A stretch of DNA of 34,835 nucleotides from Nemertoderma westbladi. Taxonomy: Eukaryota; Animalia; Xenacoelomorpha. Under the pieces are notes generated by a model. The model did no database searches and had not been told where the DNA came from. It saw only the letters and a list, made by a program, of their open reading frames with translations. The translations under genes and the position numbers were made by a program. The stretch lies in the NCBI GenBank assembly GCA_032718475.1, contig JAUCBJ010006126.1:1-34835 (forward strand), given 5' to 3'. Within the stretch, counting starts at the first letter, position 1, and each line of letters begins with the position of its first letter. Of the stretch, positions 1,471-34,835 are shown piece after piece.

Positions 1471-2169
1471 GTACAGCAGTAGCCTAACCACTGAACCATA
1501 CAACAGAAAAAAGAAAAGGCGACCGAAGCGAGACTAAATTTTTAAACAGCTAATGAAATTTTTAAGCCACTTCCGTAATTGTTAAACTAATAAATCGGCG
1601 CCGGTTTTTATTTTTGGGAACGCCAAGCGCCAAAGCCGGTGCGCTTTACGATTTTCAAAAAATCAGTGCGTCAGTCACCATACAGCCATAGGAACCGAGA
1701 AAAACACTGAACTACCTAAAAGGACCAGAGACGTCAATTGACACCAGGCTGCCAGGCATATTTATCATTGAAATAGCCAGCTGTATCATACAAAATATAT
1801 CATCATACAGCATGTTTAGAGAAAGACTACTGCGCCACACCGTTTTTGGTTATATACATATTACTGTAAACTGAAAAATTAAAACTGTTGATATTGGATT
1901 TCATTGTAACATTGACCAACAGGATTATTTGCTGTAGAGCTTTTCCTTCTCCACAGGAATACTGTAGTCAAGTAGAGTAGATGTTACTACAGTATTATAT
2001 GACAGTCTACAGCCAACAAAACAATCTCAGTATCCAATTTTATTGCAATATTGCTTCTATATTTTGAAAGTATATATTTTTCTAATGTTTTGTTTCTGTG
2101 TACATATATGATTGACTTCTGTCCTGTGAATTTTTTATTATTGTATATGGCTTTCCATATCTTGGAAAA

Positions 2170-3917: not shown

Positions 3918-4330
3918 GGGGGTATTCCTGGTCACTGATTTCATTTCGAGGTCAGTTTTCACTTTTAGTGAAATCTAGTTTTTCTGTATGTCTCTCTGTC
4001 GGTCTTTCGGACTATCCGACAATCTATCCGTCGAATATGAAGGTCACACCATCGAGGTAAAAGTTTAGTTATAGGGGTTTTCCTGTTCGCAGAATTCATT
4101 TCTATTGTCAGTTTTATCGTTTGATGATTTCCAAATTGTCTGTTTGGCTGTCTGTTATATTTTGACGGACAGACATACAAACAGAAACGACAAGGCCAAA
4201 TTTGAATACTGACATCAGAAATGAAGTCACCGACCAAGAAAACCCATATAGGAATTTTTTTTAGACAGATAGTATTCTTTTTATTGACGGGCAGACCGAC
4301 AGTCCATCGGATAGAGAACCATTTCGAGAA
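3918..4330. repeat. Dispersed repeat family copy with internal inverted arms and GACA motifs
   Basis: 4070-4260 (ggggttttcctg...ttcatttc...gtcagtttt...ctgacatcagaaatgaa...ccaagaaaaccc) is clearly related to 15310-15520. Confidence 0.6.
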
Positions 4331-5525
4331 GTATGACAGATCTTGCTAAACCGTTTTCAAATTTGGAATCTTGATATAAATCTGCTCTAGATGAAATATG
4401 GAAAACTTTTTTTAAAACTAAATAAACTAATATTGCAATTCATTGTTACACAAATTGACAAATAACATAGTAAACAATAACATGACAAATAACGTGTTAA
4501 CAAATATTGCAAAACATTGTTATTTCATGACTAATATTGAAAAACATTGTTCCTAATTCGCCCAGCCTGAGAGTTTTTTATTACTTTATGGCCAGTTATC
4601 AAACTTGCAATAAACTCAAAAAAAAAACCATTTGGGAAAACGAAATTAAAAGCATAAATAAGGCCTAAAGTAAATAAAATAACGTAGTCAAAGCTTTTCA
4701 CAGATTCAATACCCCACTTGGTTAGTATTGCCCGCCAAGCTGTCTTCAGAGGTCTGAAAAAGGCCACATCCAAGGGTTGTAGTATGTGAGTGGCATTAGG
4801 AACAAGAGGAATATAACTAATATTATTTGATTTGCAGCTAAGAACAACTTTAATAGAGAGGTGGCTAGACAGATTATCACCAATAAGAATTTTTTCCCAT
4901 TCAGTTTATTGGCAGCTGGTAGAAATACCTCGAAGTACATCGAAACCATCGAACCCTCGAACCATCAGACTGATTCTGTTGCATCGTAAATTGTGCCGGA
5001 TGGCCCCCCTATTCCCCATTCCGGATCGTATCTTCCAGCTTTATATATCACCATAAGAGGCAATAAATTACCATCCGCTGACCCACTGAACATAAGAGAG
5101 ACCGCCTGTTTTGATTTTGAGATAATACGCTCCACACGTTTCAAACCACGCTTGCAGATAACCCTTTTGTCCCCAGGCTGCTGGGCTGGTTGCTCACATT
5201 GGTTTCATCAAAATTGAAAATGTTAGATGGTGGAATCACATCTGTTACTTCAGCTTCGTAATTGTTAAAGAAGGCATTAAGTTGCTTCTCGCCAACCTCT
5301 GCCTAGGGCTCAACAGAAGCTTCGGCTTCGGTTCGGTTCGGGCCGAAGTTTGGCAATTTCGGTTCGGTTCGGCTTCTGCAATTGATACTGCAGAAGCCCG
5401 GAGCAAACTTTGCTAAATATTCCAAGTATTACATTGACTGATTGAGACCAGAAGACAGTAGTACAGCAGTAAGACTAATCAATCTGTCCATCGTTGTACT
5501 AATTAATTTTGGGGTGTAAACGTTA

Positions 5526-5952
5526 AGCAGACACTGGTGCAGAGCAGACAGTGGTGTAGACAGTGATGCAGACAGTGATGCAGACACCTGGTGCAGACAG
5601 TGGTGCAGACACTGGTGAAGGCAGTGGTGCAGACAGTGGTGCAGACAGTGGTGCAGACATAGGTGCAGACACCTGGTGCAGACAGTGGTGCAGACACTGG
5701 TGAAGGCAGTGGTGCAGACAGTGGTGCAGACAGTGGTGCAGACACTGGTGCAGACAGTGGTGCAGACACCTGGTGCAGACAGTGGTGCAGGCAGTGGTGC
5801 AGACACTGGTGCAGACAGTGGTGCAGACAGTGGTACAGACAGTGTTGCAGACAGTGGTACAGACAGTGGTGCAGGCACTGGTGCGGACACTGGTGCAGAC
5901 AGTGGTGCAGACACCTGGTGCAGACAGTGGTGCATACACTGGTGCAGACAGT
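5526..5952 (+). repeat. 12/13-bp tandem array (GGTGCAGACAGT), left foldback arm
   Basis: Directly visible array with occasional 13-bp variants (ggtgcagacacct). Confidence 0.97.
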
Positions 5953-6772: not shown

Positions 6773-7387
6773 CACCAGGTGTCTGCACCAGTGTCTGCAC
6801 CACTGTCTGCACCAGTGTCTGCACCACTGTCTGCACCACTCTGCATCACTGTCTGCACCAGTGTCTGCAGCAGTGTCTGCACCACTGCCTGCACAACTGT
6901 CTGCACCACTGCCTGCACCACTGTCTGCACCACTGTCTGCACCACTGTCCGCACCAGGCTGCCAGGTGTCTGCAGTCTGCACCACTGTCCGCACCAGGTG
7001 TCTGCACCACTGTCCGCACCAGGTGTCTGCACCACTGTCTGCACCCGTGTCTGCACCACTGTCTGCACGCGGCACCACTGTCTGCACCAGTGTCTGCACC
7101 ACTGTCCGCACCAGGTGTCTGCACCAGGTGTCTGCACCACTGTCTGCACCACTGTCTGCACCACTGTCCGCACCAGGTGTCTGCACCACTGTCCGCACCA
7201 GGTGTCTGCACCACTGTCTGCATCGCTGTCTGCACCAGTGTTTGCACCAGTGTCTGCACCACTGTCTGCACCACTGTCTGCACCATTGTCTGCACCACTG
7301 TCCAGCTGTCTGCACCAGTGTCTGCACCACTGTCTGCACCACTGTCTCCACCACTGTCCGCACCAGGTGCCTGCACCACTGTCTGCT
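6773..7387 (-). repeat. 12/13-bp tandem array (ACTGTCTGCACC), right foldback arm, inverted relative to the left
   Basis: The unit is the reverse complement of the 5526-5952 unit. Confidence 0.97.
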
Positions 7388-9966: not shown

Positions 9967-10969
9967 ATGGCGCACGTAGATGCACCGGCACCGGTTTCTG
10001 CGTCCCCCGCAATGTCGTCAACTATACCGAAGCATTGTATAACTTCCCCCAACCTTGTAGTCGTCGAGAAGCCCTCGGATTCCGACGAACATTCCCCGTA
10101 CGATTGGCCGGTACAGCAGCAGACACAAACCGGCGGTTTGCAGCTCTCCTCGGTACATCGCAGTAAAAGTGAAAGTAAACTCTACGCATCGGCTGAGCGC
10201 GCCGAGGTCAAACTCGCAAAACGGGAGAGTTTAAAAGCGCAAAAGAAATCCTACCGACAGGAAAAGAAAAAAGCAACAAAAGAACTGATGAGCACTCTGA
10301 AAGATCCATCAGTTATTGTGATCGCCGATTGGTTAAAAATCAGAGGGACTTTACGATCTTGGACTAAATTATGGTGTGTTTTGAAACCGGGTTTACTTGT
10401 TTTCTATAAAAGTTCTAAGCACGGACAGTGGGTGGGTACAATGATGCTGAACGTATGCGAGTTGATCGAACGGCCCAGTAAGAAGGACGGTTTCTGCTTC
10501 AAGTTGTTCCACCCGTTGGACCAGACAGTCTGGGCCCTTCGCGGCCCCAAAGGGGAGACCGTAGGGGCTATTACAATCCCGTTACCTAGTAGTTACGCTA
10601 TAATGCGGGCCTCAAGTGAGGCCGATGGTAAGTGTTGGATGGACGCGATAGAGTTGGCTATCCGCTGTTCCACGCTGCTGATGCGAACACTCCCGGCTTC
10701 TAAGTTCGTCACAGACGCGAGTAACACAGAACTCAGCGCTCTCGACGTTTCCGATGTTAACGACGACGTCCCTAGTTCCCACGGTAACGGTTTCCACGAC
10801 GCCGCTAAGGAGTTGTTTGCTGACGCGACGGGTGGTGGGGATGTGGACGATGTTGACGCGATCATGATGGGCGAGATTTCGGACGAAGAGGAGGACGATG
10901 ATGTTTTAGAGACGGAGTCGCAAACTATACGGGAGTCCAAATACATCGAGGCTCCTAAAGAGGATCTGG
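9967..10969 (+). CDS. OSBPL8: Oxysterol-binding protein-related protein 8/5-like, coding exon 1 (polybasic region and PH domain)
   Basis: RESLKAQKKSYRQEKKKATKEL, DPSVIVIADWLKIRGTLRSWTKLWCVLKPG and IERPSKKDGFCFKLFHPL match the ORP5/8 N-terminus and PH domain. In-frame TGA TGA precedes the ATG. Donor G|GTGAGT at 10970 (phase 1). Confidence 0.93.
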
Positions 10970-11369
10970 GTGAGTCTGTTGGTCTTCTCAGTTACAATTA
11001 CACAAACCGAACACTCAATACAGCAATAGGCCTATATATAACAATTAATAACATTAGCAATGTTAATGACATTTATTATAAAGTTCCAAAATGTATTATA
11101 TATGTGAGAAATATTCTTTATCATTAGTTGATTGGATACCATACTGCCATACCGTTTTATATTTTATTTTTCTGGCCATTGTTGATATGGTTTCAATTAA
11201 TGTGTAACAGAACAAATTTTATTATTTCCCCATAGAATCATAGACTGCTCTACAGCTCTATTTATTATTATTATTAGGCCTATTATTTGCACCTGAAACT
11301 GTTATTTTACAATAAATTCCACATCGACAGTTATTTACCTGCAACTAAGTGGAAAGTGGCCATCTTGTA

Positions 11370-11493: not shown

Positions 11494-12103
11494 GGTAAAC
11501 CTGATACCTTGTATGTCCGCAATTTGCGTCCTCATGGCCTCTATCTGTCAATACCACTGTCCAGTTGTCTGCTGCCACTGTAATCAATCCTACTGTATTT
11601 GGCCGTCTTTGTATTTTATTATTCCGGATGTTCAGCTAATAATTAATCAAGACTTTTATTCTCTGATACACAATAATCTTCTATCATTGAAAATAATTAA
11701 CATTGAGTTTCTTTAATTTAAGCAAATCCATTTTATTTCCTATTCGGATTAAGAAGATCAAGAATCATCGTACCGGTACCGGTATATAATAAAATGTAGT
11801 GGGATAGGTTGGCATGAGGGGGGGGGGCTGCCCTTAGGGTGGCTGTGGCGTGTCAGTTTGGTGTGACACAAACTGATTCGTTTCTACCCTTCCCTACCCT
11901 AGTTAGTATCTACTTCTATAATCCATTGTGCTCAACTCCCGAGCAACATGGGAAATTATCATCTATTTTTAATCAATCTGCAAAATATTAAGGGAACGCA
12001 ATGTGGCGTAATGAATCGAAATTAAGATAGAAAACTGTTAAATGTTCTAATTTAGTTATCTTATTTAACGAATAAATATAATAATCTGTATTTATTTATG
12101 TAG

Positions 12104-13008
12104 GGGATCCTGGCGAAGCTTCACAGACCGGGGAGATAGAAGAGGAAAATAAGAGTCTAATCTGGACGATAGTGAAACAAGTTCGTCCAGGGATGGATCT
12201 ATCTCGCGTCGTCCTGCCAACCTTTATTCTAGAACGTCGTTCCTTCCTAGACCGTCTCAGCGACTACTACTACCACTCGGACTACCTCGCCACCGTGGCA
12301 ACTGAAGACGACCCGCTGACCCGCATAAAGTTGGTCCTCCGATGGTATCTGTCTGGCTTCTACAAGAAACCCCGCGGCCTCAAGAAGCCCTACAACCCGA
12401 TACTGGGTGAGCGGTTCCGTTGCATGTGGGCCGACCCCGAGACGCACTCGCGGACATTCTACATCGCGGAGCAGGTGAGCCACCACCCCCCGGTCTCTGC
12501 GTTCTACGTGAGCAACCGGAAGGCGGGCTTCGTCGTCCAGGGGACCATCCTCGCTAAGAGTCGGTTCTATGGGAACTCGATATCGGCAATGTTCGATGGA
12601 TCCGCGACCCTCAGTCTGTTACCCCGCGGCGAGGATTACCGTATTACTATGCCCTACGCGTACTGTAAAGGGATACTTTACGGGATGCTCTCGATGGAGC
12701 TCGGCGGCAAGGCGACGGTTCTGTGCGAGAAGACTGGCTACCGCTGCGATTTGGAGTTTAAACTGAAACCTTTTCTCGGCGGCCCCGAAACGTTTAACGT
12801 GATAGCGGGTAAGGTGAAGCTGGGTAAGGAGACCTTGGCTACCGTCTCCGGGCATTGGGATGGAAAGGTCTACGTTACGGATAAGTCGACCAATGAGGAG
12901 ATGTTGTTATGGGAGCCCAGCGCGGAGGCGAAGTCGCGTCGATTGCGGCGATATCTGATACCGGTGGACGAGCAAAGCGAGTGGGAGTCAGAGCGATTGT
13001 GGATGAAG
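12104..13008 (+). CDS. OSBPL8: OSBPL8/ORP5-like coding exon 2 (ORD lipid-binding domain)
   Basis: Acceptor tttatgtag|GG is phase compatible. Motifs EENKSLIWTIVKQVRPGMDLSRVVLPTFILE, KKPYNPILGE and the signature EQVSHHPP. Donor AAG|GTTAGT at 13009 (phase 0). Confidence 0.96.
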
Positions 13009-14302
13009 GTTAGTGGGTGGGTGGATGTATGAGAGGAATTAATGAATATGGGAGAGTCTTTTAGGCTCGTTAAGCCAAGGAATGCCTGTTCACCACCGTT
13101 AATGATCCTAAATTCGTGTTTCGTGACGGGACAGAATTTAGAAACATAACACCCCACAAATTGACTGACTCTAATCTTCTGGCCCTTTTTATTTTGAATA
13201 ATAGCCATATACTTTATCCAAAAAGTAAAACTGATCCAAATTTCCATTCATATTTTAAAAAGTATCGTAATTTAAAAACATTTACTCGCGTGACGGGACG
13301 GAAAAAATGACAGGATAATGAAAGGCCATCAATATTATTTATATTTTGTAGTTTTGAATTTTATTTGAAAATTTAATTATTTATGGAGATTAGAAATTTA
13401 TTACCTTTTAGATAATTCAGCTGCTTTTATTGATTTGGTGCGAATTAAATGCCAATCAAATAGTCAATACCTATAATACAACACCGTTACCACTCCACAG
13501 CCTTCTCGTGCCGTGAACTGAAATTATTTTTAACTGGAACCTAAGTAAACAGCCTCATTCAAACTGAAACTATAACCGAAACTGATACTATTTTTTTGGG
13601 AAACTGGAACTGTAATCCAATAAACAGGTTTTTTTGAACTGAAACTGAAAGTAGTAAGATATTGTTTCAGTTCGCAGCAATGCCTCTGCCAGCCACCAAC
13701 AGCAACAAAGTGCAAACATCCTGCGATGTGATCCAATGTTTTTAACAAACAAACATGGGCTACAAAATTTAATTTAATTTGGCCTACCTAGCTGTTGATT
13801 TTGCCGAGATATAGGCCTATTGACATTCAAAAATTGATCCAGACATATGGACAGACAGACAGATGAACAGATGGACAAGGTAAATATTTCCCGTACTAAA
13901 ACTGTATGTTAACTTCTCTCAATACTCTCAGACATCGTTGCTCCGTTGACTAGTAAAATATATTAAGTAAAATAGGAATTCCACGAACTCGTCGCCCGTG
14001 ACGGGACCGAAATAATATAAAATTCCGTCCCGCCACGAACATGTTATGCAGTGTCCAGTCCAAAACTACTTAACCATTGAGGCTCTAACTTGCTGAATAT
14101 ATACTACATATGTTGTTTCAGAACTTTGTACAGTTTCATATAAATTAAGTCTTTCATAGAAATGTAGCATTAATAATATTCAACGAAATAGTGACGGGAC
14201 GGAAAATTACACTTTGTTTTATAATTTACAACCATCTACAATGAAATTGTTTCAAACAGTATTATACACCACAATGGACAACTTACTAGTGTACTAAGTT
14301 AA

Positions 14303-16483: not shown

Positions 16484-19400
16484 CCCACCATGGCTGATCT
16501 TCCACAGTAAACACTTCCACTATGTTTCCTAAATGAATGACTGTTTACCACCATGAGTGATCTTCCACAGTAAACCCTTCCACTCTGTTTCTTAAAGGAA
16601 TGCCTGTTCATCACCATGGTTGATCTTCCACAGTAAACCCTTCCACTCTGTTTCCTAAAGGAATGCCTGTTCACCACCGTGGGTGATCTTCCACAGTAAA
16701 CCATTCCACTCTGTTTCCTAAAGGAATTCCTGTTCACCACCATGAGTGATCTTCCACAGTAAACCCTTCCACTCTGTTTCTTAAAGGAATGCCTCTTCAC
16801 CACCATGGGTGATCTTCCACAGTAAACCCTTCCACTCTGTTTCCTAAAGGAATGCCTGTTCACCACCATGGGTGATCCTCCACAGTAAACCCTTCCACTC
16901 TGTTTCCTAAAGGAAGGCCTGTTCACCACCATGAGTGATCTTCCACAGTAAACCCTTCCACTCTGTTTCCTAAAGGAATTCCTGTTCATCTCCATGGCTG
17001 ATCTTCCACAGTAAACCCTTCCACTCTGTTTCCTAAAGGAATGCCTGTTCACCACCATGAGTGATCTTCCACAGTAAACCCTTCCACTCTGTTTCCTAAA
17101 GGAATTCCTGTTCATCTCCATGGCTGATCTTCCACAGTAAACCCTTCCACTCTGTTTCCTAAAGGAATGCCTGTTCACCACCATGAGTGATCTTCCACAG
17201 TAAACCCTTCCACTCTGTTTCCTAGAGGAATTCCTGTTCATCTCCATGGCTGATCTTCCACAGTAAACCCTTCCACTCTGTTTCCTAAAGGAATGCCTGT
17301 TCACCACCGTGAGTGATCTTCCACAGTAAACCCTTCCACTCTGTTTCCTAAAGGAATTCCTGTTCATCACCATGGTTGATCTTCCACAGTAAACCCTTCC
17401 ACTCGGTTTCCTAAAGGAATTCCTGTTCACCACCATGGGTGATCTTCCACAGTAAACCCTTCCATTATGTTTGCTAAAGGAATGCATGTTCACCACCATG
17501 GGTGATCTTCCACAGTAAACCCTTCCATTCTGTTTCCTAAAGAAATTCCTGTTCACCACCATGGGCGATCTTCCACAGTAAACCCTTCCATTATGTTTGC
17601 TAAAGGAATGCATGTTCGCCACCATGGGTGATCTTCCACAGTAAACCCTTCCACTCTGTTTCCTAAAGGAATGCCTGTTCACCACCATGGGTGATCTTCC
17701 ACAGTAAACCCTTCCAGTCTGTTTCCTAAAGGAATTCCTGTTCATCACCATGGCTGATCTTCCACAGTAAATCCTTCCACTCTGTTTCCTAAAGGAATGC
17801 CTGTTCACCACCATGGGTGATTTTCCACAGTAAACCCTTCCATTATGTTTCCTAAAGGAATGCCTGCTCACCACCATGGGTGATCTTCCACAGTAAACCC
17901 TTCCACTCTTGTTTCCTAAAGGAATGCCTGTTCACCACCATGGGTGATCTTCTACAGTAAACCCTTCCATTCTGTTTCCTAAAGGAATGCCTGTTCACCA
18001 CTATGGGTGATCTTCCTCAGTAAACCCTTCCATTCTGTTTCCTAAAGGAATGCCTGTTCACCACCATGGGTGATCTTCCACAGTAAATCCTTCCACTATG
18101 TTTCCTAAAGGAATGCCTGTTCACCACCATGGCTGATCTTCCACAGTAAATCCTTCCACTCTGTTTCCTAAAGGAATGCCTGTTCACCACCCCACCATGG
18201 CTGATCTTCCACAGTAAACCCTTCCATTATGTTTCCTAAAGGAATGCCTGTTCAGGGTTCACCACCATGGGTGATCTTCCACAGTAAACCCTTCCACTCT
18301 TGTTTCCTAAAGGAATGCCTGTTCACCACCATGGGTGATCTTCCACAGTAAACCCTTCCATTATGTTTCCTAAAGGAATTCCTGTTCATCACCATGGTTG
18401 ATCTTCCACAGTAAACCCTTCCACTCGGTTTCCTAAAGGAATTCCTGTTCACCACCATGGGTGATCTTCCACAGTAAACCCTTCCATTATGTTTGCTAAA
18501 GGAATGCATGTTCACCACCATGGGTGATCTTCCACAGTAAACACTTCCATTCTGTTTCCTAAAGGAATTCCTGTTCACCACCATGGGCGATCTTCCACAG
18601 TAAACCCTTCCATTATGTTTGCTAAAGGAATGCATGTTCGCCACCATGGGTGATCTTCCACAGTAAACCCTTCCACTCTGTTTCCTAAAGGAATGCCTGT
18701 TCACCACCATGGGTGATCTTCCACAGTAAACCCTTCCAGTCTGTTTCCTAAAGGAATTCCTGTTCATCACCATGGCTGATCTTCCACAGTAAATCCTTCC
18801 ACTCTGTTTCCTAAAGGAATGCCTGTTCACCACCATGGGTGATATTCCACAGTAAACCCTTCCATTATGTTTCCTAAAGGAATGCCTGCTCACCACCATG
18901 GGTGATCTTCCACAGTAAACCCTTCCACTCTTGTTTCCTAAAGGAATGCCTGTTCACCACCATGGGTGATCTTCTACAGTAAACCCTTCCATTCTGTTTC
19001 CTAAAGGAATGCCTGTTCACCACTATGGGTGATCTTCCACAGTAAACCCTTCCATTCTGTTTCCTAAAGGAATGCCTGTTCACCACCATGGGTGATCTTC
19101 CACAGTAAATCCTTCCACTATGTTTCCTAAAGGAATGCCTGTTCACCACCATGGCAGATCTTCCACAGTAAATCCTTCCACTCTGTTTCCTAAAGGAATG
19201 CCTGTTCACCACCCCACCATGGCTGATCTTCCACAGTAAACCCTTCCATTATGTTTCCTAAAGGAATGCCTGTTCAGGGTTCACCACCATGGGTGATCTT
19301 CCACAGTAAACCCTTCCACTCTTGTTTCCTAAAGGAATGCCTGTTCACCACCATGGGTGATCTTCCACAGTAAACCCTTCCACTCTGTTTCCTAAAGGAT

Positions 19401-19788
19401 TACCTGTTCACCACCATGGGTGATCTTCCACAGTAAATCCTTCCATTCTGTTTCCTAAAGGAATGCCTGTTCACCACCCCACCATGGCTGATCTTCCACA
19501 GTAAACCCTTCCATTATGTTTCCTAAAGGAATGCCTGTTCACCACCATGGGTGATCTTCCACAGTAAACCCTTCCACTCTTGTTTCCTAAAGGAATGCCT
19601 ATTCACCACCATGGGTGTTCTTCCACGGTAAACCCTTCCACTCTGTTTCCTAAAGGAATACCTGTTCACCACCATGGGTGATCTTCCACAGTAAACACGT
19701 CCACTCTGTTTCCTAAAGGAATTCCTGTTCACCACAATGGGTGATCTTCCACAGTAAACCCTTCCACTCTGTTTCATAAAGGAATTCC
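16484..19788. repeat. 60-bp tandem satellite, about 55 copies
   Basis: Consensus caccaccatgggtgatcttccacagtaaacccttccactctgtttcctaaaggaatgcctgtt, directly visible. Confidence 0.98.
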
Positions 19789-20541: not shown

Positions 20542-21192
20542 GTTTCTGAAGCGATCAGTCGTTGCGACCAGGTCGCCGCTACCGACGAGAAGTTTGTGTT
20601 GGAAGACAGACAGCGCCAAGAAGCGCGGGACCGCAAAGCGCGCCGAATCGAGTGGCAGCCGCAGTACTTTATGCCGGAGTCTGGCGGCGGCGGCAGCGGC
20701 GGCTGCATGTGGGTCTACCGGCATCAGGACGTCCGACCCTGGGATATGGTCAACGACATGTTTCAGTTTGAGTACGCCGGGGTCATTCAGACTAAGACGC
20801 GCCACCGCAGTACGCCACTGGTGCGCGCCACTTCCATAGCCTCGGTGGCGCAGCTGCCCGATCTGTCGAGTCTCCGACGGCAGGGAAGTAAACCGGCGAC
20901 TCGCGAGTCGTCCAGCCGTCCCGTGGATACGGACAGCTCGCAGGACGAGAGTCACTCGATCACGGACGCAGACACCGCGACGCCAGTGCACGGGCGCCCC
21001 CTAGCGGCCGCCAACGTGTCCCGAGTCGAGGAGCTCCTACAAGCGAACTGCAACCAGATCGCACATCTCATAGAAACTCAACGCCGTCGCGATGAGAACA
21101 ACCACTACCGGGATTACTGCCTCGTCATCATTCTCGTTTTCGTTCAGGCCGTAATGACCTACCTAGCCGGCCACGGTAACAGCTCCTCTTAA
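20542..21192 (+). CDS. OSBPL8: OSBPL8/ORP5-like coding exon 3 (ORD end and C-terminal ER transmembrane anchor)
   Basis: Acceptor cccacctttag|GTT (phase 0). Motifs VSEAISRCDQVAATDEKFVLEDRQRQEARDRK and RPWD..D..QFE..GVIQT, then a hydrophobic tail YCLVIILVFVQAVMTYL and TAA. Confidence 0.93.
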   Translation, partial: VSEAISRCDQVAATDEKFVLEDRQRQEARDRKARRIEWQPQYFMPESGGGGSGGCMWVYRHQDVRPWDMVNDMFQFEYAGVIQTKTRHRSTPLVRATSIASVAQLPDLSSLRRQGSKPATRESSSRPVDTDSSQDESHSITDADTATPVHGRPLAAANVSRVEELLQANCNQIAHLIETQRRRDENNHYRDYCLVIILVFVQAVMTYLAGHGNSSS

Positions 21193-24100: not shown

Positions 24101-25404
24101 TTGTTCAGTGAATATATTTACACTAGGCTAAAAGCTATTACTTTTTGTATTTGTCTGCCCTTACTGACCTTGACACCATAATATTACAGCTTGTACTTGT
24201 GCAGTGGCCTTTAAAGGTGGCAGTTTTGTGTCATACAGTATGCAACCGAAAGATTTACTAATAATTGTTTGTTGTTGTCGGTAGTTTTGTAGTAACTCAA
24301 CGTTTATAGACAATGCGTTCCAGAAACTGTTCTTTTTTCACCCCATCCCTACTTTTTCGTTTTATTACAAAATGTAACATTGAACTACATACTAAACTTG
24401 TTTTTAAATGGTTATCATATAGGTATAATTTCTTTAGATTTTATAGAATGTATTTATTTAGAACTATAAATGGTTCCACTTAATTTTAGAAAATTTGATA
24501 ATCCAAAGGTTCTGTGTATTATTTAATTTTGGAGTTAAATAATAGTTAAGTAGTTCAGATATTATATAGTTATTAGTATTAAATTGACACACGTTAGGTA
24601 AACACCCTTACAGGTGGGATTTCTTCAACGACCAAAATCTATATAATAACTGAAAAGTTACTGATAGCAAGATGTTTCATGCAATAGTATGAGAATTATA
24701 ATTAGTTAATCAATATTATTCTACCCAGTAGATGACGTTGTGGTTTAATTCGGAATTTTGTATATTTTGAAATTGTGAACCTCAATGAATCTGAAACCCA
24801 CTAGAGTCTAGTTTCCGGAAGGATCAACATTTTAATATTGAGAATACTTTATCAAAACCCTTTAAACTCATTTATTATCACGATAATATAAATTTGAACG
24901 CACATTTCCTAAAATATAAATATATGTTGATTCAGACAAACTATTGAATGTTACTGATTTATCACAGTTAGTTTATTCCTGCTGTAATTTTTTCCCCATG
25001 ATTTGTTTATTTATTGTTAATTCATAGGTATTCGTGATTTTACATTATTTTAATAGATCATTTATTGTGCTTTGGTTAAAATATAATTACAATTACTATT
25101 TATGTCTTGTAGTACAATATACATACAGGGTCTGGTCTACACAATGTTTGGTTTTTTAATAGCTGTGCTCAATGTTTATCAATCCAAACAATTGGTCGAA
25201 GCTAAACTCCTATCCCAAGTCTTTTCTTTTAATCAGTTTAAGCTAAAACTTGGTAGATTTGTATTAGACCATTAGCTCTTGTCATTCAAAGGGGGATAAT
25301 CCTTCTGCAACTCTCTACTCTGCCGCTAGAGGGCGAAATGTGTGAAAGTGAAATCCTTGAACCATTCCGTTATTTATAATCCGTTCAAGTTGAAACGTGT
25401 CAGA

Positions 25405-25995
25405 TGTGACGGGATCAAGGGATCCCGACCGGATTTGATTCTTACGCGTCACTACAGGCTGATGGTGGTTAATAAAAGAGTCTTAGTTTGATGTGCCTTC
25501 GTGAATGTAATATAATATGATATAAAGTAATGATAGCAATAATACTGAGTAACCGGTAACAAAATAGATAATATACAAGGCAGTATTGCAGTGACGGTAG
25601 AACTATATTGCCGGCCTGCACTGAAACTGACTACTGAATAAACTGAGCTACGGGCCGGTAGCAAATAGATAATATATAATACTCTACCGCTACACTACTG
25701 TGGCCTTTCACCCAGTGGATGCCCTCCTTCGCCCCTATTGGCCAATAACCTACTTCACGCCTCCCATTCTCTCTGGGAGTGTTTCCCCCCCTGTTGGCCC
25801 CTGCTGGTTGTTTTCCCCTTTCGAGGTGGATTGACCTCTAACCTCCCTTTGTGTGGCTTTGGGGTTTGTGTTGTCCCCGGTGTTGGTTGTGATACGAGAT
25901 TGGTTATTGCCAATCTAGTATCTCCAACATATTGCTGAAAAGGTGCCACTTCCCAACTTTGTGAGGGTAGTGCGGCGGAATTGAATCCGAATACA
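25405..25995 (-). repeat. Putative 3' LTR (about 591 bp)
   Basis: The minus strand begins TGTATTCGG right after a polypurine tract and ends ...CGTCACA. Only one copy is visible and there is no canonical AATAAA on the minus strand, so the left boundary is tentative. Confidence 0.55.
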
Positions 25996-26007
25996 CTCCC
26001 CCCCCCC
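25996..26007 (-). promoter_or_regulatory. Polypurine tract (PPT)
   Basis: Minus-strand GGGGGGGGGGAG directly followed by TGT. Confidence 0.65.
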
Positions 26008-26727
26008 ATGCTATCTTCCCGGTGAGAAGATAGCATCACCTGTAAGTGCGCTTCAATTCCGCTGGAACCCGATCTACTATCGGGTGTGGGGTGGAGTTCT
26101 TTTCTTGGAGTCGGCTTTCCAGGCCGCTCCCTCTGGGTATGATATTACTACCCCTTCTTGGTGCAACCGCAACCTATGTTGCACCAAGACATCTGGCGTC
26201 TCGGTTCGAGACAATTGTGGACTCTTCTCACACAATTTTGTATCTCCACTCTACTCTAGACTGATTCTAACTTCTCTAGCTCCACTCTACTTTCGGACCT
26301 CTTTGTCCCTCACTCTACTTCTTACTCCTCGCTCCCCACACTTTGAATTGCACCTGTACTCCTTCCACACACGTCAACACCTCTTCCCACTATCTCCCTG
26401 CACTCCTATACTCAACCCTTACCCGTTTCGCTCCACTCACCCCTGACGAGCCTCACCCTCCCCTTTCGCGCCGTCGCACTCAAGAAGTGTGAGTCGTCTA
26501 GTGTCTCGTCCTGTCATAGTCAATTGGTCCCCAGTCCCAGTAGCTAGTTGGAAAAGGTTACATGACTATAGTACTTACTTTAATTATATTGAATATGTAT
26601 TGATTATATAATTATACTTATTACATACGTACATACTAATTGCACTTTTATTAAATTTGCACTTAGAAGTTCGCATTACTTCGCATGTGGTGCCTTCCAG
26701 GCATCCCCACATCTCCCCCTCCAAGTT

Positions 26728-29259
26728 CTAATTCGCTCCTCCTGAATCTGGGAACCATATCAGGTCCTGTCTCGGTCGCTTCCTGGTTGTCGCCGCTTCC
26801 TTGTTCTTGTCCTCCTTAAGGCTCCTCATCCTTGCCGTTACCTCCTTACTGATTCCCATGGTCGATTCCTTGGGCGCTGATGTGATTAGCTCCCGGTATC
26901 GCTTCGCAGGTGGCCCCTCCGAATGCCCCTGCTGCTTTCCCCTAGTAGCGTCCCATAAGATCACCTTCATGGCCCGCGGCACATGCTCCGCCAGGAAATC
27001 TCTGAACTCTCCCCGGTTCTCTGGCGCCCATCTATCTAAATACCTCTGTGTATTGATCACTCCACCATACGATGCCGCCGTCACTACTTCTTGATAAGTA
27101 AACGGAAGTTTCCGTTTAATACTTTCCAGGTGGGCCTCCTGGTTAATATTGAAGAAACCCCACTGGAACTCCTGGGCCATCATTCTTTGCCGCGTCATGA
27201 CCCCGACGTCGGCCCACTCCTCGAAGATCTTAAACTTCTCCTCGTCGTCCATCCAGTCGCACTGGCGTCCGTAGTGTCCCCGAAAGTTACACTTAGAACA
27301 CCGGTTGTGCAACCGCGGACACGCCCCCATCCTGTGACTTGACTCGTGGCAGTAGAGGCAACTCGTCCCCTTCAAGCAGCTCTTTTCTTGGTGAGTAAGC
27401 CTCCCGCAGTAATCGCAGCCATGTATCAACGCATCCCACCCCAAGTCGTCTTTTGCCCCAAGCGATCTCCTCGGTCTATGGAGCCGTTGGTAAGCAAACT
27501 TCTGGACATTAATGTCTCTGTCCATGTCTATATCCTCGTCTCGCCTTGGCATCATCTCTCCGAACACTACCTGTGGTGCCGTTCCCGGTTGTTCGCCCAA
27601 CCTGATGGTGATCCCCGCGAAATCCATCGCCGGCTCCTCATGCAGCCAGGCCCGCTTGCCGGGTTTATCCCAGAAGGCCCTCGCCCCGCTGGCCGTCACC
27701 ACTCTCCCGCCAACCCAGTCCCTGTCTGAGTGGCCAATCCTCTCGATGGGTGGCATCTCCCCGAACTCATCGTCATCCTCGTCCTCCGCTGGGAGTGGAT
27801 CCAAACCCAGTATCCTGGTAGACCCACTGTGTCCCTCCCCACCTTGGCTCTCGCCCATGACTTTCCATCCTTCTAGTTCCCTTGGTCTTTTCTTCGCGAA
27901 ATTGCCCTCGGCGCCCGCTGGCATGGGCGTCGCCTGCAATCCTGATGTCGACTGTTTCGGCGATCCTTCCGTCCATCCCAACTCCCGCCCCAGAGACTCG
28001 CCCGAGCTCCCTGATCCCCACTGTAAATCGTCCAAGGCCTGGGCCTCGAACCCGTAGCCCTCTCCTCTAGCTTCCGCCTCTCTTTCATCTGCCTCCCTCC
28101 TTTCTCGTCTGGCGATTTCTTCCAATCGCTTCTCCTCTAGTCTATCCGCCTCCAGCTTCTCCCACCTCTGATATGGTGTATCCACCTCCCTGTCTACTAG
28201 ATATCGGCAGTTGTAGTATACCGACTCACCCTTCAGCCCCGGGTGGTCTGCCAGACCCTCGAAGGCCACTTTGAAGGCTCTTCTGTAGTTCAGGGGTGAT
28301 CCTGATAGCTGAAATGCCATTGGCTCTCTTCCGATAACCACGGCCATGAATAGGTTTAGTAAACCTATCATTATCCAATCCTCCTGCAGGATATATTGCT
28401 TCTGATATATCTTTATCACTCCTTTCCGGAATTGATACACCTCCTGTTTCCCTGGCCTCGCTCCCCACTTTAGCGAGTTCGCCAACTCCGCTCCATACTC
28501 CTCCCTGAATTTACCCCAGTCCATCGGCTTGTGGCAGACGAGCCCCATTAGCTGGCCCATCACCACTGCTCCGCAATGTCCTGTGTTCTCTACTAGTCCC
28601 AACCCAGCTGGCCCTGTCATAGCCATGTAGACCGTTTGCATGTCCAGGAGGTTGGGGGTCTCCGGACTGATGATCCTCTCCGCATCGTCGTGGATCGCTG
28701 ATCCCACCTTCATTGTCGACTTCTCCCTTACTACGTTCTGCACCGCCCTTGACAACTGGTTCAACTTCGGCCCACTCTTCTTCCCATACTTTCCCAGATT
28801 GAACAGGAATATGTCCCCATTTGGCGCAGCCAAATGTAGAAGTATGGTTCTGGCCGACCCCGCCGACCTTCTCCTCGAACCCTCTTTGTCTTCCACGGTC
28901 CCTTCGTCGTCTAGGACCATGTATCCTCCCCTGCTGACGGACTCTACGAACCTCTTCCAGTCCTTTCTCGGTGGTTCCCTCGGATACTTCGGTATCCCGA
29001 ACTTCGCCTCGTCTCCCTTCACCACGTAGTGGAAATGCTCGAGGATCGCGTTGTCTAGCGACGGCGTCCCGTAGGTCCCGACCAGCCGCCTCTCGTGCAC
29101 CTCCCTGAAATGGTCCTGCAGCGCTCGCGCCTTATGACCCTTCTCTAACCGCTCGTAGTATCCCCTCGTCTTCTCCTCCGGATGCCTCTCGGTGAAGTGT
29201 ACTAGTATCTCCTTTCCACCCATTTCCGCCTTTCTCTTTCTGACAAGTCTCTCCGCCAT
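26728..29259 (-). CDS. Retroelement-borne protein: DEDDy 3'-5' exonuclease-like domain, coiled coil and three CCHC zinc knuckles (843 aa from the first ATG)
   Basis: Uninterrupted ORF. Exonuclease-like motifs in order: YMVLDDEG, LLHLAAP..IFLFNL, KVGSAIHDDAERI, LLDMQ, GQLMGLVCHK, QKQYILQED. Knuckles CDYCGRLTHQEKSC, CLYCHESSHRMGAC and CSKCNFRGHYGRQC all fit C-X2-C-X4-H-X4-C. Confidence 0.78.
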   Translation of the reverse strand: MAERLVRKRKAEMGGKEILVHFTERHPEEKTRGYYERLEKGHKARALQDHFREVHERRLVGTYGTPSLDNAILEHFHYVVKGDEAKFGIPKYPREPPRKDWKRFVESVSRGGYMVLDDEGTVEDKEGSRRRSAGSARTILLHLAAPNGDIFLFNLGKYGKKSGPKLNQLSRAVQNVVREKSTMKVGSAIHDDAERIISPETPNLLDMQTVYMAMTGPAGLGLVENTGHCGAVVMGQLMGLVCHKPMDWGKFREEYGAELANSLKWGARPGKQEVYQFRKGVIKIYQKQYILQEDWIMIGLLNLFMAVVIGREPMAFQLSGSPLNYRRAFKVAFEGLADHPGLKGESVYYNCRYLVDREVDTPYQRWEKLEADRLEEKRLEEIARRERREADEREAEARGEGYGFEAQALDDLQWGSGSSGESLGRELGWTEGSPKQSTSGLQATPMPAGAEGNFAKKRPRELEGWKVMGESQGGEGHSGSTRILGLDPLPAEDEDDDEFGEMPPIERIGHSDRDWVGGRVVTASGARAFWDKPGKRAWLHEEPAMDFAGITIRLGEQPGTAPQVVFGEMMPRRDEDIDMDRDINVQKFAYQRLHRPRRSLGAKDDLGWDALIHGCDYCGRLTHQEKSCLKGTSCLYCHESSHRMGACPRLHNRCSKCNFRGHYGRQCDWMDDEEKFKIFEEWADVGVMTRQRMMAQEFQWGFFNINQEAHLESIKRKLPFTYQEVVTAASYGGVINTQRYLDRWAPENRGEFRDFLAEHVPRAMKVILWDATRGKQQGHSEGPPAKRYRELITSAPKESTMGISKEVTARMRSLKEDKNKEAATTRKRPRQDLIWFPDSGGAN

Positions 29260-29754
29260 TTCGAACGCTCCCGATCGCTCACCTACAAGGTGATGCCTTG
29301 CCAAGGCTCAATATAGGTGAGTAATGTAGTTAGGATGGTCTGTGCGGTCCGATAATGGCCTATCTCTCTCAGAATGCTAGGTTTTACGCTATATTTTGCC
29401 TATCTACCCCCTAAAGTGCTAAATTTCCCTAAATTCCCTAAATCTGTCAGTTACTTTTATTATGTTCTAGAATTGTCTGCCTACTGTTGCTATAATTTGT
29501 TGAATTTTTAATTTAATTATAATTTTGAATTCTATCACTGTGCTATCAATACTTATAATGGATTATTTGTCTAAATAACCCCTATGGTTTGCGTACAGGG
29601 TAGACTAGCTATTCCTTACTGTGCTAGTCTGCACCAGGTAACCTCCTGTCCCTGTATCAAACATTCTGACCTATTCTACGGGCTGTGCAGTACAGCAGTA
29701 TGTTTTGTGCGGCGTACACGGTCTGTCCTGCTGTACCCACGTGCCCCCCTCTCA

Positions 29755-30200
29755 CTTCTTACTACTAACCCTACTAACTCTCTAACTCTACTAATTCCCT
29801 AACTCTTACTAACTCTCTAACTCTTACTAACACTCTAACTCGTACTAACTCTTACCAACTCTCTAACTCTTACTAACTAACGGTACTACGTACCCTCTTA
29901 CAACTCTACTAACTCCACTAATGGTACTACGTACCCTCTTACACTCTACTAACTCCACTAACGGTACTACGTACCCTCTTACTCTCTAACTAACTCCACT
30001 AATGGTACTACGTACCCTCTTACTCTCTAACTAACCCCACTAATGGTACTACGTACCCTCTTACTCTCTAACTAACTCCACTAATGGTACTACATACCCT
30101 CTTACTCTCTAACTAACTCCACTAACGGTACTACGTACCCTCTTACTCTCTAACTAACTCCACTAATGGTACTACGTACCCTCTTACTCTCTAACTCTTA
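29755..30200. repeat. 41-bp tandem array (8 copies) preceded by short ctaact repeats
   Basis: ggtactacgtaccctcttactctctaactaactccactaa(t/c) starts at 29882, 29923, 29963, 30004, 30045, 30086, 30127 and 30168. Confidence 0.95.
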
Positions 30201-31429
30201 CTATCTTCTATCTGCCTACTTACTTACTACTACGTACTATGTACTATTACTTTCCTTTCTCTTTCTAACTTTCTTTCTATTATTATTATTTTTTTTTATT
30301 ATTATTTTTTTTTATTTTTGTGGGTAGGGCGTCTCGCCCTCAATCCCACCCCCCTCAGTCCAACACTTGGACGATTAAACTCTATGGTGCCCCTTCTAGC
30401 AGGTAACACTTCTATCCGCACTTCTACGGATCTAACTCTTCAATCCCCCCCCCCCCCCCCCTCAGTCCAACTTATTGGACGACTCAGCGACCTAAGGGTG
30501 ATTCTTCCAGCAGGCAACTCTCCCACTGCCCCCCTGTAGGTCCTCTAATTCTTCGCCCCACTCTCCTTGTCAATTCCAACTCTCTTGGAATTGACCTTCT
30601 CTTCTCTCCTGTCCTTAAATCTGGAAAGTGCCGCCTATTCTCTGTATTACTGATCTCCTCGTGGTTTTCCCCTGGCGGCAAAGTGCCACCCTACAACTTG
30701 TCGTTTGGCGGTATAATGCCAGCCCCTGATGTCATCCTTACTCTTACATGCTACCTCTGCTGGCCTCCCCCTTAATATGTGTGCTGGCATTAAAGCCCTC
30801 GACGACCCCCGGTCGTCCTTCGGTATACATGATGTCTTACCATTTAATGCCCCTTCGCACTCTGCCAGCCCCGTGTGCGTGTGCAACACGCCTCCTTCTA
30901 CTTTCCTGGCTCCTTTGTTACGTTTAATAATGGGCTTCTCTGCCCCTGGTCTAATCTTCTCACATCCTCTCCCTTTCCACCTTGTCTTCTTACTCGACCT
31001 CCCCCTTTTCGGTATCCCTCTCACCCGGACTGGCATCTCCTCCAGACACTCCTCCGGACACTCCTCCGGAGATCTCGCCGTCCACTCTTCTCCACCCTCA
31101 TACCGATACTTGCCAGGAACATCCTTGTTCCATCCCATCGCCTCTAGGTCTTCGGCATCCAAGCCATTCTCCTCCGCCCACTCTCTTGGTGTTGCTTCCA
31201 CTTCTAGCTCATCTACCGGCGGTATTTCACTGGAACTATCCTCTATCCTTTCACCACGCCCCACTATGCGTGGTTCCAGATCCATACCCAACTCCTGGTA
31301 TCCTTCCCCGGGCTGCTTCTTACATGGGACCTCCCCATCGCCCGTCTCTGATTTCTCCTCTACCTCCTCAACAGTGCCTGGCAGTATGCACCCTGAAGTT
31401 TCGGACACACTGAATGGAATGTTGGTTTT

Positions 31430-32574
31430 GATTGGGCCGGTTAGCGTCCATCCGAATGGTGTGAGGATTGCCACCGGATCACGCTGTCTGTCTTCTCTGA
31501 AGATCGTCTGATTTCTCTCGTGGGCCGTCGGGCAATCCATTCCCACTATGATGGATACCTTCCTGACGTCCACCTCCGGTATCGAGAAATCGATGTTGTC
31601 CAGGAATCTGTATTGCTCGACCTCGATGTTGGTTGGTTGCCTGGCGTTTATGTTAATCGATTCTATCACCTGGATGGGGTCGATGGTCGCCCCTTAGTCA
31701 CATCCCGGTGCTATCGCTGATATCTCGCACCGTCCCGTCCTCATCTCCAGGACCTCATCTTTGCTGGAGATGGTTGTTACCACCATCCTACTTGGCCTCG
31801 TCTTTAGTCCTATCTCTTCGGCCACCCAATTCTCCACTGACCAGTGTGAAGGCTGCTCCACTGTCGACCAGCATCAACGTGGTTACTGATCGACCGCCTT
31901 CTCCTATCACCCTCACTGGTACTACCCCGAGTAGTACCGTTCCTCTTTTCTTCGCCCCTACGGTGCTTGTCGCCATTGTCTGCCCTTTGCCTTGACCGAA
32001 CTTAATTGGTGTTTCTTTGCATTGATCAGCTTTGTGTCCGCCCGCCACACATCGATAACTGATTCCACTCTTCCTTGCGTATTCTACCTGATCTTGTTTG
32101 GGCAACGCTTGCCAATACCTGCAGTTCTTGGTCTCGAATGCAATTGGCATTTGTTGTTTGGATTATAGCCGTCCCTATACAGTGCGCTGCGTATCGCACT
32201 TACGTTCGTACCTAGTTCCCTACTGTTCTTATTGTTTGGATTTGGCCTACTGGGCGTGTTGGGGTTATATTTGTTTGTGTTGTTATTTTGCCCCTGTCCA
32301 CTCCATGGTGTGGCCCTACCCCCGGCTACATGTGGACTAGCAGTCCCCTGCGTCGCCGCGTATGGCAGCGATTGTCTAAGCTTTGGTAATGCATTTGCCG
32401 TGTTGTGTTCTGGTTTCGGCCTGTTATACTCGGTCGTTGGCCCCCTCCCCAGACTATCCTCGCTATAGACTGGGTCCGTGATCAACTCTGCTTCGTAGTT
32501 GAGTGGAGAAGGCGATCTTTCTCCATTTATTGTGCAGCCAGATCGGCAGTGCCTGCGCTATTGTGTTGATATTA
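31430..32574 (-). pseudogene. BEL/Pao gag C-terminus, zinc knuckle and aspartic protease (frameshifted)
   Basis: IAQALPIWLHNKW, SYRCVAGGHKADQC (first Cys lost), VLLGVVPVRV..TLMLVDSGAAFTLV, VSIIVGMD and PVAILTPFGWTLTGP, spread over several frames. Confidence 0.88.
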
Positions 32575-33675
32575 CTAGAGACGGGCCTAGCGGCCCGTGA
32601 AGCAAGTCGTAGGAGACAGTAGGAGTCAAGTAAAAGCTTTTTGTTCTGTCTGATAATCAATTAGTGTGAGGGTAGTCCCGGTGGCGTACGAAAAATTTTC
32701 TAGACAACTTCAAACTATAATTATTATGTTGTATCATCTAATGAATTACAGTATAAAAGCTGTTGTGATTATAGTAGATAGAGAGCAGTTAGCAAAATGA
32801 TTATTTTATTCTATCGGATAGAGTAGTCAGAGAGGAGTCGAGGTGTCAATTGATTAATAATAATAACAGCAGTTGTCATGAATTCAATATACAATCGCGC
32901 ACAAGAAGTGAAGCACAAGAAGACAAATTCGTTCTTATTTTTGTAATAAATAAAACAAGTTGAGATGTTTCAATGTAAACCGCGATTAACAATTTACACT
33001 GTTCAATGTAAACCACGATATAAATTAAATACAACAATTATATTATTATTATAACAGATTTTTATATTTCAAACTATAATGTTAGCCTTATGGAGAATCA
33101 TTCTGAGGCTGAGTAAACATTCAGCCTTATAAGCATACAGCCTCCACAGATTTCAAAATAAAACAATAATGCGATGAGAGCATAGTACAATACACTGTGT
33201 AGCCAACACACTGTATAACTAACAGTCATTTAGCTTGCATGCCAATTAATTAACATAGCAAGGATGCATGGGGAAGAGTTATTCAGCTGAGACTGTAATA
33301 GCCAGCTAAACCAGTTGATGTTAGCTTACTGTCTGGGTTGTAGAGTAGAGTGATAATAAAACTTGGCAGAGAAAGTACTTCTTTGTTAGTTGCCCTTCCT
33401 ATTGAATGCTTTACCAGGCCATCTCTATACATTTTTCATGAGTGCCAGCTGGTGTTTTATCATTGCGCCTATGGCAATTTTCGTGTTTTGGGGCTATTTT
33501 TCGAAATAAAACAAGTTGAGATATTTCAATTTAAACCGCGATTTCACAAGTACCCTTAGAAATCCATTTTCATGGTCCATGCAAAATTTCATCAAAATCA
33601 TTAGAGCCGTTTTTGCTCTACGTCAGTAGCCAGTAGCTTTTTTTTCTTACAGTAATCAAGTCTAACGACTTGCTA
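32575..33675 (-). mobile_element. Helentron/DINE-1-like non-autonomous element (HINE) inserted in gag
   Basis: Subterminal inverted repeat AGCAAGTCGT/ACGACTTGCT, 3' hairpin ACGGGCC-TAGC-GGCCCGT next to a CTAG end, and a short 5' inverted repeat caagtc..gacttg. Removing it with one ATTA restores gag ...ELNASNINTIAQ... Confidence 0.8.
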
Positions 33676-34835
33676 ATTAGATGCGTTGAGTTCGTATGGC
33701 GCATCTAGTGTCTTCAGCACGATTAGCGCCTTCTCGACCTTGTTCGCAAACGTCTTTATGCTAACAGGGTTATCCTGTAGACCACCCGATGTTATACCCC
33801 TTAAGGTCTGCCAGATGATCTTGGCAGGGTGTCCGTATTCCCTGTCTAGGGCCCACCATGCAGTCGTGAAGCCACCCTCGATGCCCTGATACTGCCTCAC
33901 GATGTCGTACGCTGGTCCTCCTGTATATACTTGCAGATACTTTAGGCACTCCGCTTGCGTCAAGTTTTTTGTTAGTATTTCATTGCTATACATGCGCCGA
34001 AACTGCAGGTATTCTTCCGGCCTACTTCCATCGTATTTGAACGGTTCAACGGGTGGTAACTCGATTCTGGTCTTGAGCGCATCGATTAGTGTAGCCATTC
34101 CCATGCCTTCCAATGGGTTCGGAGGATGCTGTACAGATTCTCCCGTTGGGTGCGGTCCGCCCGTCCGGCCTGTTGACTTCCTTTGCGTCGGATATGCCAT
34201 TGGGGGTAACGGCCCCCTCCATATTTCCGTGTCGCAATATCTGTTCTCGTCCAGGGGGTTCGATGTTCTTATTTCTGTTTGAGTGTATTGTTGATATTGT
34301 AATGGGGGAATGTCACCCTGTCCCCCCCCCCACAGGTGGTATGTTTGGTACTGGGGTTGATGTTAATATATTGGGGCCCATACACCTATCCGCAATAACT
34401 CTCCCCTCCCCTGGATATATGTTATGTCCCTGCATATTATAGTCATACTGCTGTGCTGGTACTGGTATAGGCCTATCCACTTCTGGCCTACCTACCGGTA
34501 TATACTCCGCGACTTCCGGGTCTAATCCCATTGTTCGTGCTACCCTATTGCCTACAACATCTCTCCCAGCATGGCCTATAGTATGTGCAGTAAGGCCTAC
34601 AGTATGTCCTGCAGTCTGTATGTGTCCCTCCGGACCGATGTTTAACCTTCTCGAATAATCCAAGAAGTCCTCCCCGCGACTACCGTACCCTCGATCGGCA
34701 GCTATATCCCGTCGGGAAGTTTGTCTTCAATCCCCTCTCCTGTTCTCGTCCTCATACCGGTACGTCCTGTACCCCTCTCTCGGCGTATAATATATCTCGC
34801 CAGGCTGCGTCTCTCCGGGGTGACGGCAATCTCCC
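33676..34835 (-). pseudogene. BEL/Pao gag (DUF1759-like) N-terminal portion
   Basis: IELPPVEPFKYDG..EYLQFRRMY...LKYLQVYTGGPAYDIV...AWWALDREYGHP...IKTFANKV. The upstream part is broken into several frames. Confidence 0.88.

Follow-up and report, generated by a model that had tools for sequence, protein, structure and literature searches.

The retrotransposons Juno and Vesta of bdelloid rotifers are Gypsy-like. ORF3 genes of the DEDDy exonuclease type have been published for both of them, and also for Athena/Terminons (PMC5408684), and are cited in several reviews (PMC6431247, PMC5718144, PMC6338049). Animal retrotransposons seldom carry accessory genes other than env, such genes have hardly been tested, and the published DEDDy case showed neither selection nor activity (PMC5408684). 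For the Belpaoviridae, the ICTV profile gives gag, pol and env only (PMC8742986). Three cellular proteins are relevant as well. In T. brucei RNase D, zinc knuckles supply RNA binding to a DEDD domain (PMC7797062); EXD1 is a known catalytically dead DEDD RNA binder (PMC5408684); and EXD2 can coat RNA-DNA hybrids, protecting them against other nucleases rather than cutting them (PMC13425236). Known anti-silencing factors of transposable elements act narrowly (PMC6719617).

Here we describe a third gene, ORF3, of a BEL/Pao element in a 34,835-nucleotide contig of Nemertoderma westbladi (JAUCBJ010006126.1, assembly GCA_032718475.1), which is referred to as the window. A literature search that had subscription journals, Repbase, Dfam, GyDB and supplements outside its scope found no report of a BEL/Pao exonuclease or of the ORF3 architecture. 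The word exonuclease is absent from the main text of a large BEL/Pao survey (PMC3118150) and from that of a 2026 envelope survey (PMC13524379). Since Repbase, Dfam and GyDB were outside the search, an existing annotation is possible.

ORF3 and the surrounding element

The features of the element are collected in Table 1.

Table 1. Coordinates of ORF3 and of the element that carries it (positions in the window; aa, residues of ORF3).
Feature	Position	Strand	Basis or remark
ORF3	26728..29259	-	Order: DEDDy exonuclease-fold domain, long helix, disordered acidic linker, three CCHC knuckles, conserved C-terminal domain
DEDDy 3'-5' exonuclease-fold domain, predicted (aa ~56-354)	28198..29094	-	Structure-match rows, EXD2 profile match, pLDDT
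ExoI D117-x-E119	28903..28911	-	In the D-x-E column of the family; aligned to D-x-E of EXD2
ExoII D192	28684..28686	-	Conserved column of the family
ExoIII Y289-x3-E293	28381..28395	-	Glu at the position usually occupied by Asp in DEDDy enzymes
Acidic linker, predicted disordered (aa 401-612)	27424..28059	-	pLDDT <50; no family conservation in the alignment
Three CCHC zinc knuckles	27259..27417	-	Family signature H-x4-C-x2-LH-x2-C-x2-C-x2-RGH
Conserved helical domain after the knuckles	26950..27258	-	E..AD.G..T..R...GFF...Y; invariant columns in 35 rows
BEL/Pao gag, 5' part, two frames	33673..34726	-	Pfam DUF1759, E 3.8e-9
Secondary insertion in gag	32575..33650	-	Ends in hairpin + CTAG; run X2 contig joins 32525 to 33676
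BEL-type nucleocapsid remnant, aspartic protease, post-protease GW motif	31415..32162	-	DSG ~31860; pieces in different frames
Non-pol spacer in the RT-RNase H-integrase slot	29260..31414	-	41-bp tandem array 29876-30196 (TRF) and acidic run-on frame
Polypurine tract	26712..26722	-	5 bases past the stop codon; similar tracts in relatives
Probable 3' LTR	25405..26711	-	TG start at 26711; candidate end at ...ACA 25405

ORF3 encodes 843 amino acids from a Met codon at 29259 on the minus strand. Its frame is open for 859 codons (26728-29307), and the remaining five frames contain 21-46 stops each over the ORF3 stretch. The stop-free 2.5-kb reading frame that the original prediction had placed here, co-oriented with gag, is thus present, as are the frameshifts it had described in gag and protease. 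Gag carries an insertion of about 1.1 kb, presumably Helitron-like, that is skipped by a contig of run X2. The protease and the GW motif match the pol of loci bearing Peptidase_A17, both in tblastn and with profiles. A pol relic had been proposed upstream of ORF3. This is correct for the protease and the motif following it, but not for the remainder of pol: a pol profile search of the window detected no RT, RNase H or integrase, and similarity to BEL pol ends at about 31415. Because these three enzymes are absent, the window copy is a non-autonomous, RT-less derivative.

The polypurine tract that the original prediction had noted next to ORF3 is present. It is followed by TG and resembles GGGGGAGA(A)TG downstream of several relatives. 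Three clues bear on the end of the LTR: multi-copy depth continues as far as about 25350, pieces of contigs stop at 25405, and loose ends lie at 25404. There is no second LTR within the window; the 5' LTR lies outside it. Scans of the window for tRNA and Rfam families revealed neither a tRNA nor a convincing Rfam match.

An env identity of ORF3 was rejected, because the protein has no clear membrane segment (best 19-residue hydropathy 1.59), in agreement with the earlier view that it is not an env. A hydropathy of 1.9 is reached by 2/39 locus ORF3s of the relatives. ORF3 shows no signal peptide, membrane anchor or fusogen fold of the env type, and its best viral fold matches were exonucleases and polymerases. 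Three perfect C-x2-C-x4-H-x4-C knuckles occur at 27417-27259, exactly as predicted, and no others occur in any of the window's six frames. As a single sequence, ORF3 had no Pfam match, including DNA_pol_A_exo1 above the cut-off, and nothing was retrieved from PDB sequences or by a word-index protein search. The single-sequence fold was uninformative (pLDDT 36).

A predicted DEDDy fold in a divergent family

HMMER was run over all 1.84 billion representatives and gave 82 matches, with the best stretch always in the knuckle region. Seven of the 82, picked by eye, were used to build an N-terminal profile. Its score against the window protein (residues 102-318) was 69 bits, and it recovered many of the other long HMMER matches as well. 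A profile of the window protein and 30 relatives matched EXD2 (E 3e-12) and T. brucei RNase D (E 7e-8), and more weakly Egalitarian (E 3e-5) and WRN (E 3e-4). A second profile, which combined the window domain with 38 metagenome loci, again ranked EXD2 first (E 2e-10). When the window row was dropped, the resulting loci-only profile scored the window ORF at 26 bits, compared with at most 3.4 bits for 500 shuffles.

An alignment-based model had a pLDDT of mostly 70-95 over the exonuclease-fold domain. In the same model the C-terminal helical domain reached 73-93 over aa 670-760; a PDB sequence search with this domain gave no match. The best structural match in VIA-align was Nibbler EXO (Z 14.2, rmsd 3.4, 203 aligned). 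Further rows were NrnC-like enzymes, WRN (Z 13.2), RNase D (Z 12.9), RRP6 (Z 12.6) and T. brucei RNase D (Z 12.4), and EXD1 and Egalitarian were also among the matches. The top 26 rows all have the DnaQ/DEDDy fold, and Foldseek concurs. Identity to host exonucleases in the structural alignments is 9-20%, and no relative exceeds 23-24% identity to the window protein in the nuclease domain. Profiles, model and Foldseek together predict a DnaQ/RNase H-like, DEDDy fold for the N-terminal domain of ORF3, the fold that the original prediction had named.

The donor signal is split. Sequence profiles favour EXD2. In the structure rows Nibbler leads, but by no more than about 1 Z unit over WRN and NrnC-like enzymes. 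An Rrp6 origin was rejected: neither profile search returned Rrp6, no HRDC was seen, and RRP6 occurs only as a lower structural row. The Pfam exonuclease family was detected in 0/26 locus ORF3s and in 1/48 database relatives, and one relative scored 23.3 bits against a cut-off of 23.6. Indeed, the 26 locus ORF3s had no Pfam match of any kind, and repeat annotation would therefore miss the family. A search of viral_contigs with the knuckle pattern gave 0 matches.

The active site across the family

The active site of the window ORF3 reads D-E-D-Y-E. The DEDDy motif order had been predicted, and for ExoI and ExoII it stands, with the acids in conserved columns. However, the one extra residue proposed for ExoIII was rejected, as the alignment gives normal Y-x3-E spacing with Glu replacing the last Asp. 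A Glu-last ExoIII is common to the window protein and its nearest relatives, P0004, P0008, P0009 and P0044. Because the window protein groups with these four (SH-aLRT 88-93), its Glu looks like an inherited feature, not a product of decay; the placement is unsure, since the window protein forms a long branch in a quick tree, and the grouping has no starred support.

Sixty-seven non-redundant domains were placed in this quick tree with SH-aLRT support. All four catalytic acids are kept in 35 of them, six of which have Glu last. If Glu is also accepted at ExoII, 38 domains are intact, 2 partial and 27 dead. Two or more acids are lost in 27/67 domains (about 40%). Seventeen dead domains form one clade with a support of 99, and the starred branches require at least two separate changes to the dead state. 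The knuckle residues are invariant in all 35 aligned rows, and the loci L047 and L059 retain the knuckle module while an exo domain is not detectable.

Genomic context of the relatives

For the genomic context, metagenomes were searched with a DNA pattern for knuckles 2 and 3. The pattern fits 69 of 89 stored proteins and makes no use of pol or nuclease information. At least 120 loci were obtained, which may derive from few host species. Context counts were restricted to L001-L080, because L081-L120, none longer than 663 bp, are too short. Of these 80 loci, 76 match the knuckle profile; the exceptions are L014, L019, L041 and L071, the last of which is probably a chance match. Among the matches listed, 33 of the 76 have at least 4 kb upstream. 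Same-strand BEL/Pao pol was present in 31 of these, the nuclease domain in 30 and both in 28. With at least 3 kb upstream (n=41, again among the matches listed), the corresponding numbers were 36, 37 and 32. The two loci without pol are L005, whose contig is filled by ORF3, and L012, a degenerate copy. These pol-context counts refer to metagenome loci.

Twenty-nine large ORFs were hand-picked for a Pfam scan, and 21 of them went into the pol profile. All upstream ORFs (26/26) match Peptidase_A17 or DUF5641, and many add RT and an integrase zinc finger. The remaining 3/29, without match, correspond to ORF3 or to an ORF that lies downstream. RT, RNase H and integrase are present in relatives such as L013, L026 and L046. 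Paired LTRs, which had been suggested as a check on other copies, were found in L023, where a 797-bp direct repeat encloses a degenerate element. A TGG-starting PBS-like sequence follows the 5' LTR in L023 and occurs in L013 too. Homologues are linked to BEL, as the original prediction supposed, by a pol directly upstream, and ORF3 is almost certainly an accessory gene of BEL/Pao elements.

Selection and co-inheritance with pol

A comparison of dN/dS among copies had also been proposed. Forty nucleotide sequences were compared, of which 36 pairs share more than 50% amino-acid identity. The 11 most similar of these pairs, which share at least 81% identity, had dN/dS values of 0.033-0.24. Across all 36 pairs, which are not independent and have dS near saturation, dN/dS was at most 0.53. 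Pairs from the dead clade gave values of 0.033, 0.091 and 0.092. The exonuclease-fold domain is under purifying selection.

Distances of pol and nuclease were correlated in the 24 loci with both (Mantel rho 0.81; 0/2000 permutations), and 6 of 8 supported nuclease splits are also in the pol tree. Therefore, ORF3 has mostly been inherited with pol over deep divergence. Two pairs of supported splits conflict between the trees, both within the dead clade.

The window copy and its family

Summed contig depth in runs X1-X3 was about 16-37 over unique flank versus about 2,000-124,000 in bins 25190-34835, which include ORF3 and the non-pol spacer alongside gag. Summed contig depth is not equal to copy number; X1 may be the source sample and X3 is a separate study. 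Depth was low in run X5, where the bins from position 25535 onwards gave 3-455. The window element belongs to a multi-copy family, and the depth suggests that the RT-less layout is common to its copies.

Between 28360 and 28930, 40 of 105 differences among copies were listed, which is not a random sample. Differences in at least 90% of the other copies, and thus private to the window, comprise 7 synonymous and 12 non-synonymous changes, as expected under neutrality (p 0.44). Among the rest of the listed differences (own species label), 16 are synonymous and 5 are not (Fisher p 0.024). Private window changes lie at CpG in 14/19 cases. None of the 40 listed differences touches a catalytic codon. 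From 7:12 private versus 16:5 remaining differences it follows that the family was selected, while the window copy itself seems to be decaying. As its private changes look neutral, chance may have contributed to keeping its frame open, the approximate P of this happening by chance being 0.06.

Possible functions of ORF3

We regard ORF3 as a selected non-env third gene. With about even confidence, we propose that its protein works as an RNA clamp: the knuckles would bind RNA of the element itself, and the exonuclease fold would shield or trim the 3' end of this RNA. Since the knuckles are invariant and catalysis is dispensable in about 40% of the domains, nucleic-acid binding is the simplest shared function. 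Only 35/67 domains keep the four acids and the dead clade is selected as strongly, so the function common to the family is probably to bind rather than to cut. Together with knuckle invariance and catalytic loss, the analogies to RNase D, EXD2 and anti-silencing factors favour a clamp on the element's own RNA. The original prediction of an accessory nuclease is supported in its fold and its BEL linkage, and the homologues are under selection, but proofreading and other roles that depend on cutting are weakened, because about half of the family lost catalytic residues and is conserved nonetheless.

The proposal can be spelled out as follows. The exonuclease fold was likely captured from an EXD2-type host gene. 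Judged by domain content, the knuckles and the conserved C-terminal domain would select the element's RNA, and the nuclease pocket would grip a 3' end or an RNA-DNA hybrid. Trimming may come in addition in lineages that keep all four acids, whereas dead lineages would bind only. The benefit could be that own-family RNA or a replication intermediate is protected from host RNA surveillance. The window copy, as an RT-less derivative, would have been moved in trans and now seems to be decaying. In a wider and rather doubtful version, an old undescribed BEL/Pao clade would be defined by the fusion of a captured EXD2-type nuclease to the triple knuckle, serve as a counter-defence against animal small-RNA surveillance through this protein, and have switched several times from cutting to pure binding; RT-less derivatives such as the window family may have spread with gag and ORF3 retained.

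An unlikely alternative to the clamp is that ORF3 acts in trans as a suppressor and, by mimicking Nibbler, Mut-7 or EXD1, trims piRNAs or siRNAs of the host too far or sequesters them. The best structural match, Nibbler EXO (Z 14.2), and the presence of EXD1 and Egalitarian among the matches would fit such a role, and dead versions could serve as decoys. Silencing pressure does exist, because the private changes of the window (14/19 at CpG) look like products of host methylation. However, sequence profiles favour EXD2 and not Nibbler, close pairs show strong purifying selection without arms-race change, and a review argues that broad suppressors hurt element and host (PMC6719617). Slightly less probable still is a replication enzyme packaged in the particle, acting as a proofreader or as a 3'-end cleaner of cDNA or RNA-DNA hybrids. 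The fold is that of WRN and Pol I proofreading domains, EXD2 digests RNA-DNA hybrids (PMC13425236), nucleocapsid-like knuckles could permit packaging, and ORF3 co-diverges with pol. It is difficult to reconcile this with a 17-member clade that has intact pol and lost its catalytic acids while the domain is still selected, or with L047 and L059, which keep knuckles without a detectable exo domain. Moreover, gag and pol suffice for most BEL/Pao replication (PMC8742986).

A self-limiting or host-serving gene, for example one feeding element RNA to silencing or acting against RNA viruses, has been proposed for the rotifer DEDDy ORF3s (PMC5408684) and for accessory domains generally (PMC6338049). 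Here we consider it improbable, as runs X1-X3 show strong amplification of the window family and many lineages of replicating elements have retained the gene. Adjacency by coincidence, or a neutrally captured host gene, would agree with a non-autonomous window copy and its neutral-looking private changes. This reading is refuted by the multi-copy depth that ORF3 shares with gag, by BEL pol upstream in 31/33 informative loci, by dN/dS far below 1 and by the co-divergence with pol, and we see hardly any chance for it. The family offers dozens of divergent selected members behind intact BEL pol, catalytically intact and dead ones side by side. Thus, cutting versus binding, and retrotransposon-encoded counter-silencing in animals, become directly testable.

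Comparison with known systems

The bdelloid ORF3 is similar in being a non-env gene behind pol that encodes a DEDDy-type 3'-5' exonuclease without a membrane segment (PMC5408684). Its carriers have GPY/F integrases and a dUTPase (PMC5408684), in contrast to the BEL/Pao elements here. The bdelloid motif is DEED with intact residues, whereas half of the family described here is catalytically dead. The article reports no departure from neutrality within the genome and no evidence of activity, as opposed to strong selection here. A triple knuckle is not described in the passages compared, and the domain found here is EXD2-like, unlike the bdelloid ORF3 as described (PMC5408684). Because DEDDy ORF3s of bdelloids are already published (PMC5408684), the novelty is limited to the BEL/Pao host, the exonuclease-knuckle architecture and the evidence for selection.

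T. brucei RNase D (7c42/7c45) likewise has a DEDD exonuclease followed by RNA-binding CCHC knuckles, but it is a cellular mitochondrial enzyme with four knuckles and a 28-residue linker (PMC7797062). ORF3 has three knuckles, a long disordered linker and an additional C-terminal domain, and the common layout is probably convergent. The host proteins EXD2, Nibbler/Mut-7, WRN, EXD1 and Egalitarian share fold and motif order with ORF3, and two ORF3 profiles that were built separately both have EXD2 as their best sequence match. In contrast to ORF3, these host genes are single-copy and lack knuckles of its type. Finally, env-bearing Belpaoviridae such as roo and mosquito elements have the same gag-pol order and use the same slot before the polypurine tract and 3' LTR (PMC8742986; PMC13524379). 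Their env is a fusogen, whereas the third gene described here encodes a soluble protein with a predicted nuclease fold and zinc knuckles.

Ends of the element and a second candidate derivative

In a contig of sequencing run X5, the match to the window ends at 31413 and is followed by 314 different letters. This break coincides exactly with the end of pol similarity in the window. Beyond 31413, the X5 contig may represent a copy that continues into the RT. Within the putative LTR, the region 25880-26224 showed a depth peak in the run contigs and a short inverted repeat, and it also contains a second purine tract and TG at 26007. These features could mark another possible start of the LTR, or else a nested repeat.

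A degenerate ORF3, the accessory gene of the element, was found in metagenome locus L012 (8912-10426). No pol match was detected in the 10 kb upstream of this ORF3, and L012 is possibly another RT-less derivative.

Variation in ORF3

ORF3 follows BEL pol in L047 (3341-6529) and L059 (6880-9648) and has the knuckle module, while no nuclease domain was detectable in either ORF3. Their N-terminal part may have been swapped. The protein-database relative P0002 contains two copies of the knuckle and C-terminal module and a shortened nuclease domain. N-terminal extensions of 500-950 aa were observed on the ORF3s of L005, L015, L043 and L051. In L051, a further ORF of 1589 aa (1-4767, minus strand) lies downstream of ORF3 and gave no Pfam match.

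Genomic surroundings

The BEL/Pao element lies on the opposite strand to a host oxysterol-binding-protein gene, ~5 kb past its last recognised exon. The window also contains tandem arrays and a broken transposase, which we take to be piggyBac-like.

Host gene and other repeats in the window
Feature	Position	Strand	Description
Oxysterol-binding-protein gene (host)	9967-11127, 12085-13032, 20542-20733	+	PH domain and Oxysterol_BP exons
63-bp satellite	16485-19785		~52 copies; intronic in oxysterol-binding-protein gene
12-bp unit, two arrays	5544-5952, 6780-7386		Mutually inverted, foldback-like
DDE_Tnp_1_7 transposase	2116-2966	+	Broken
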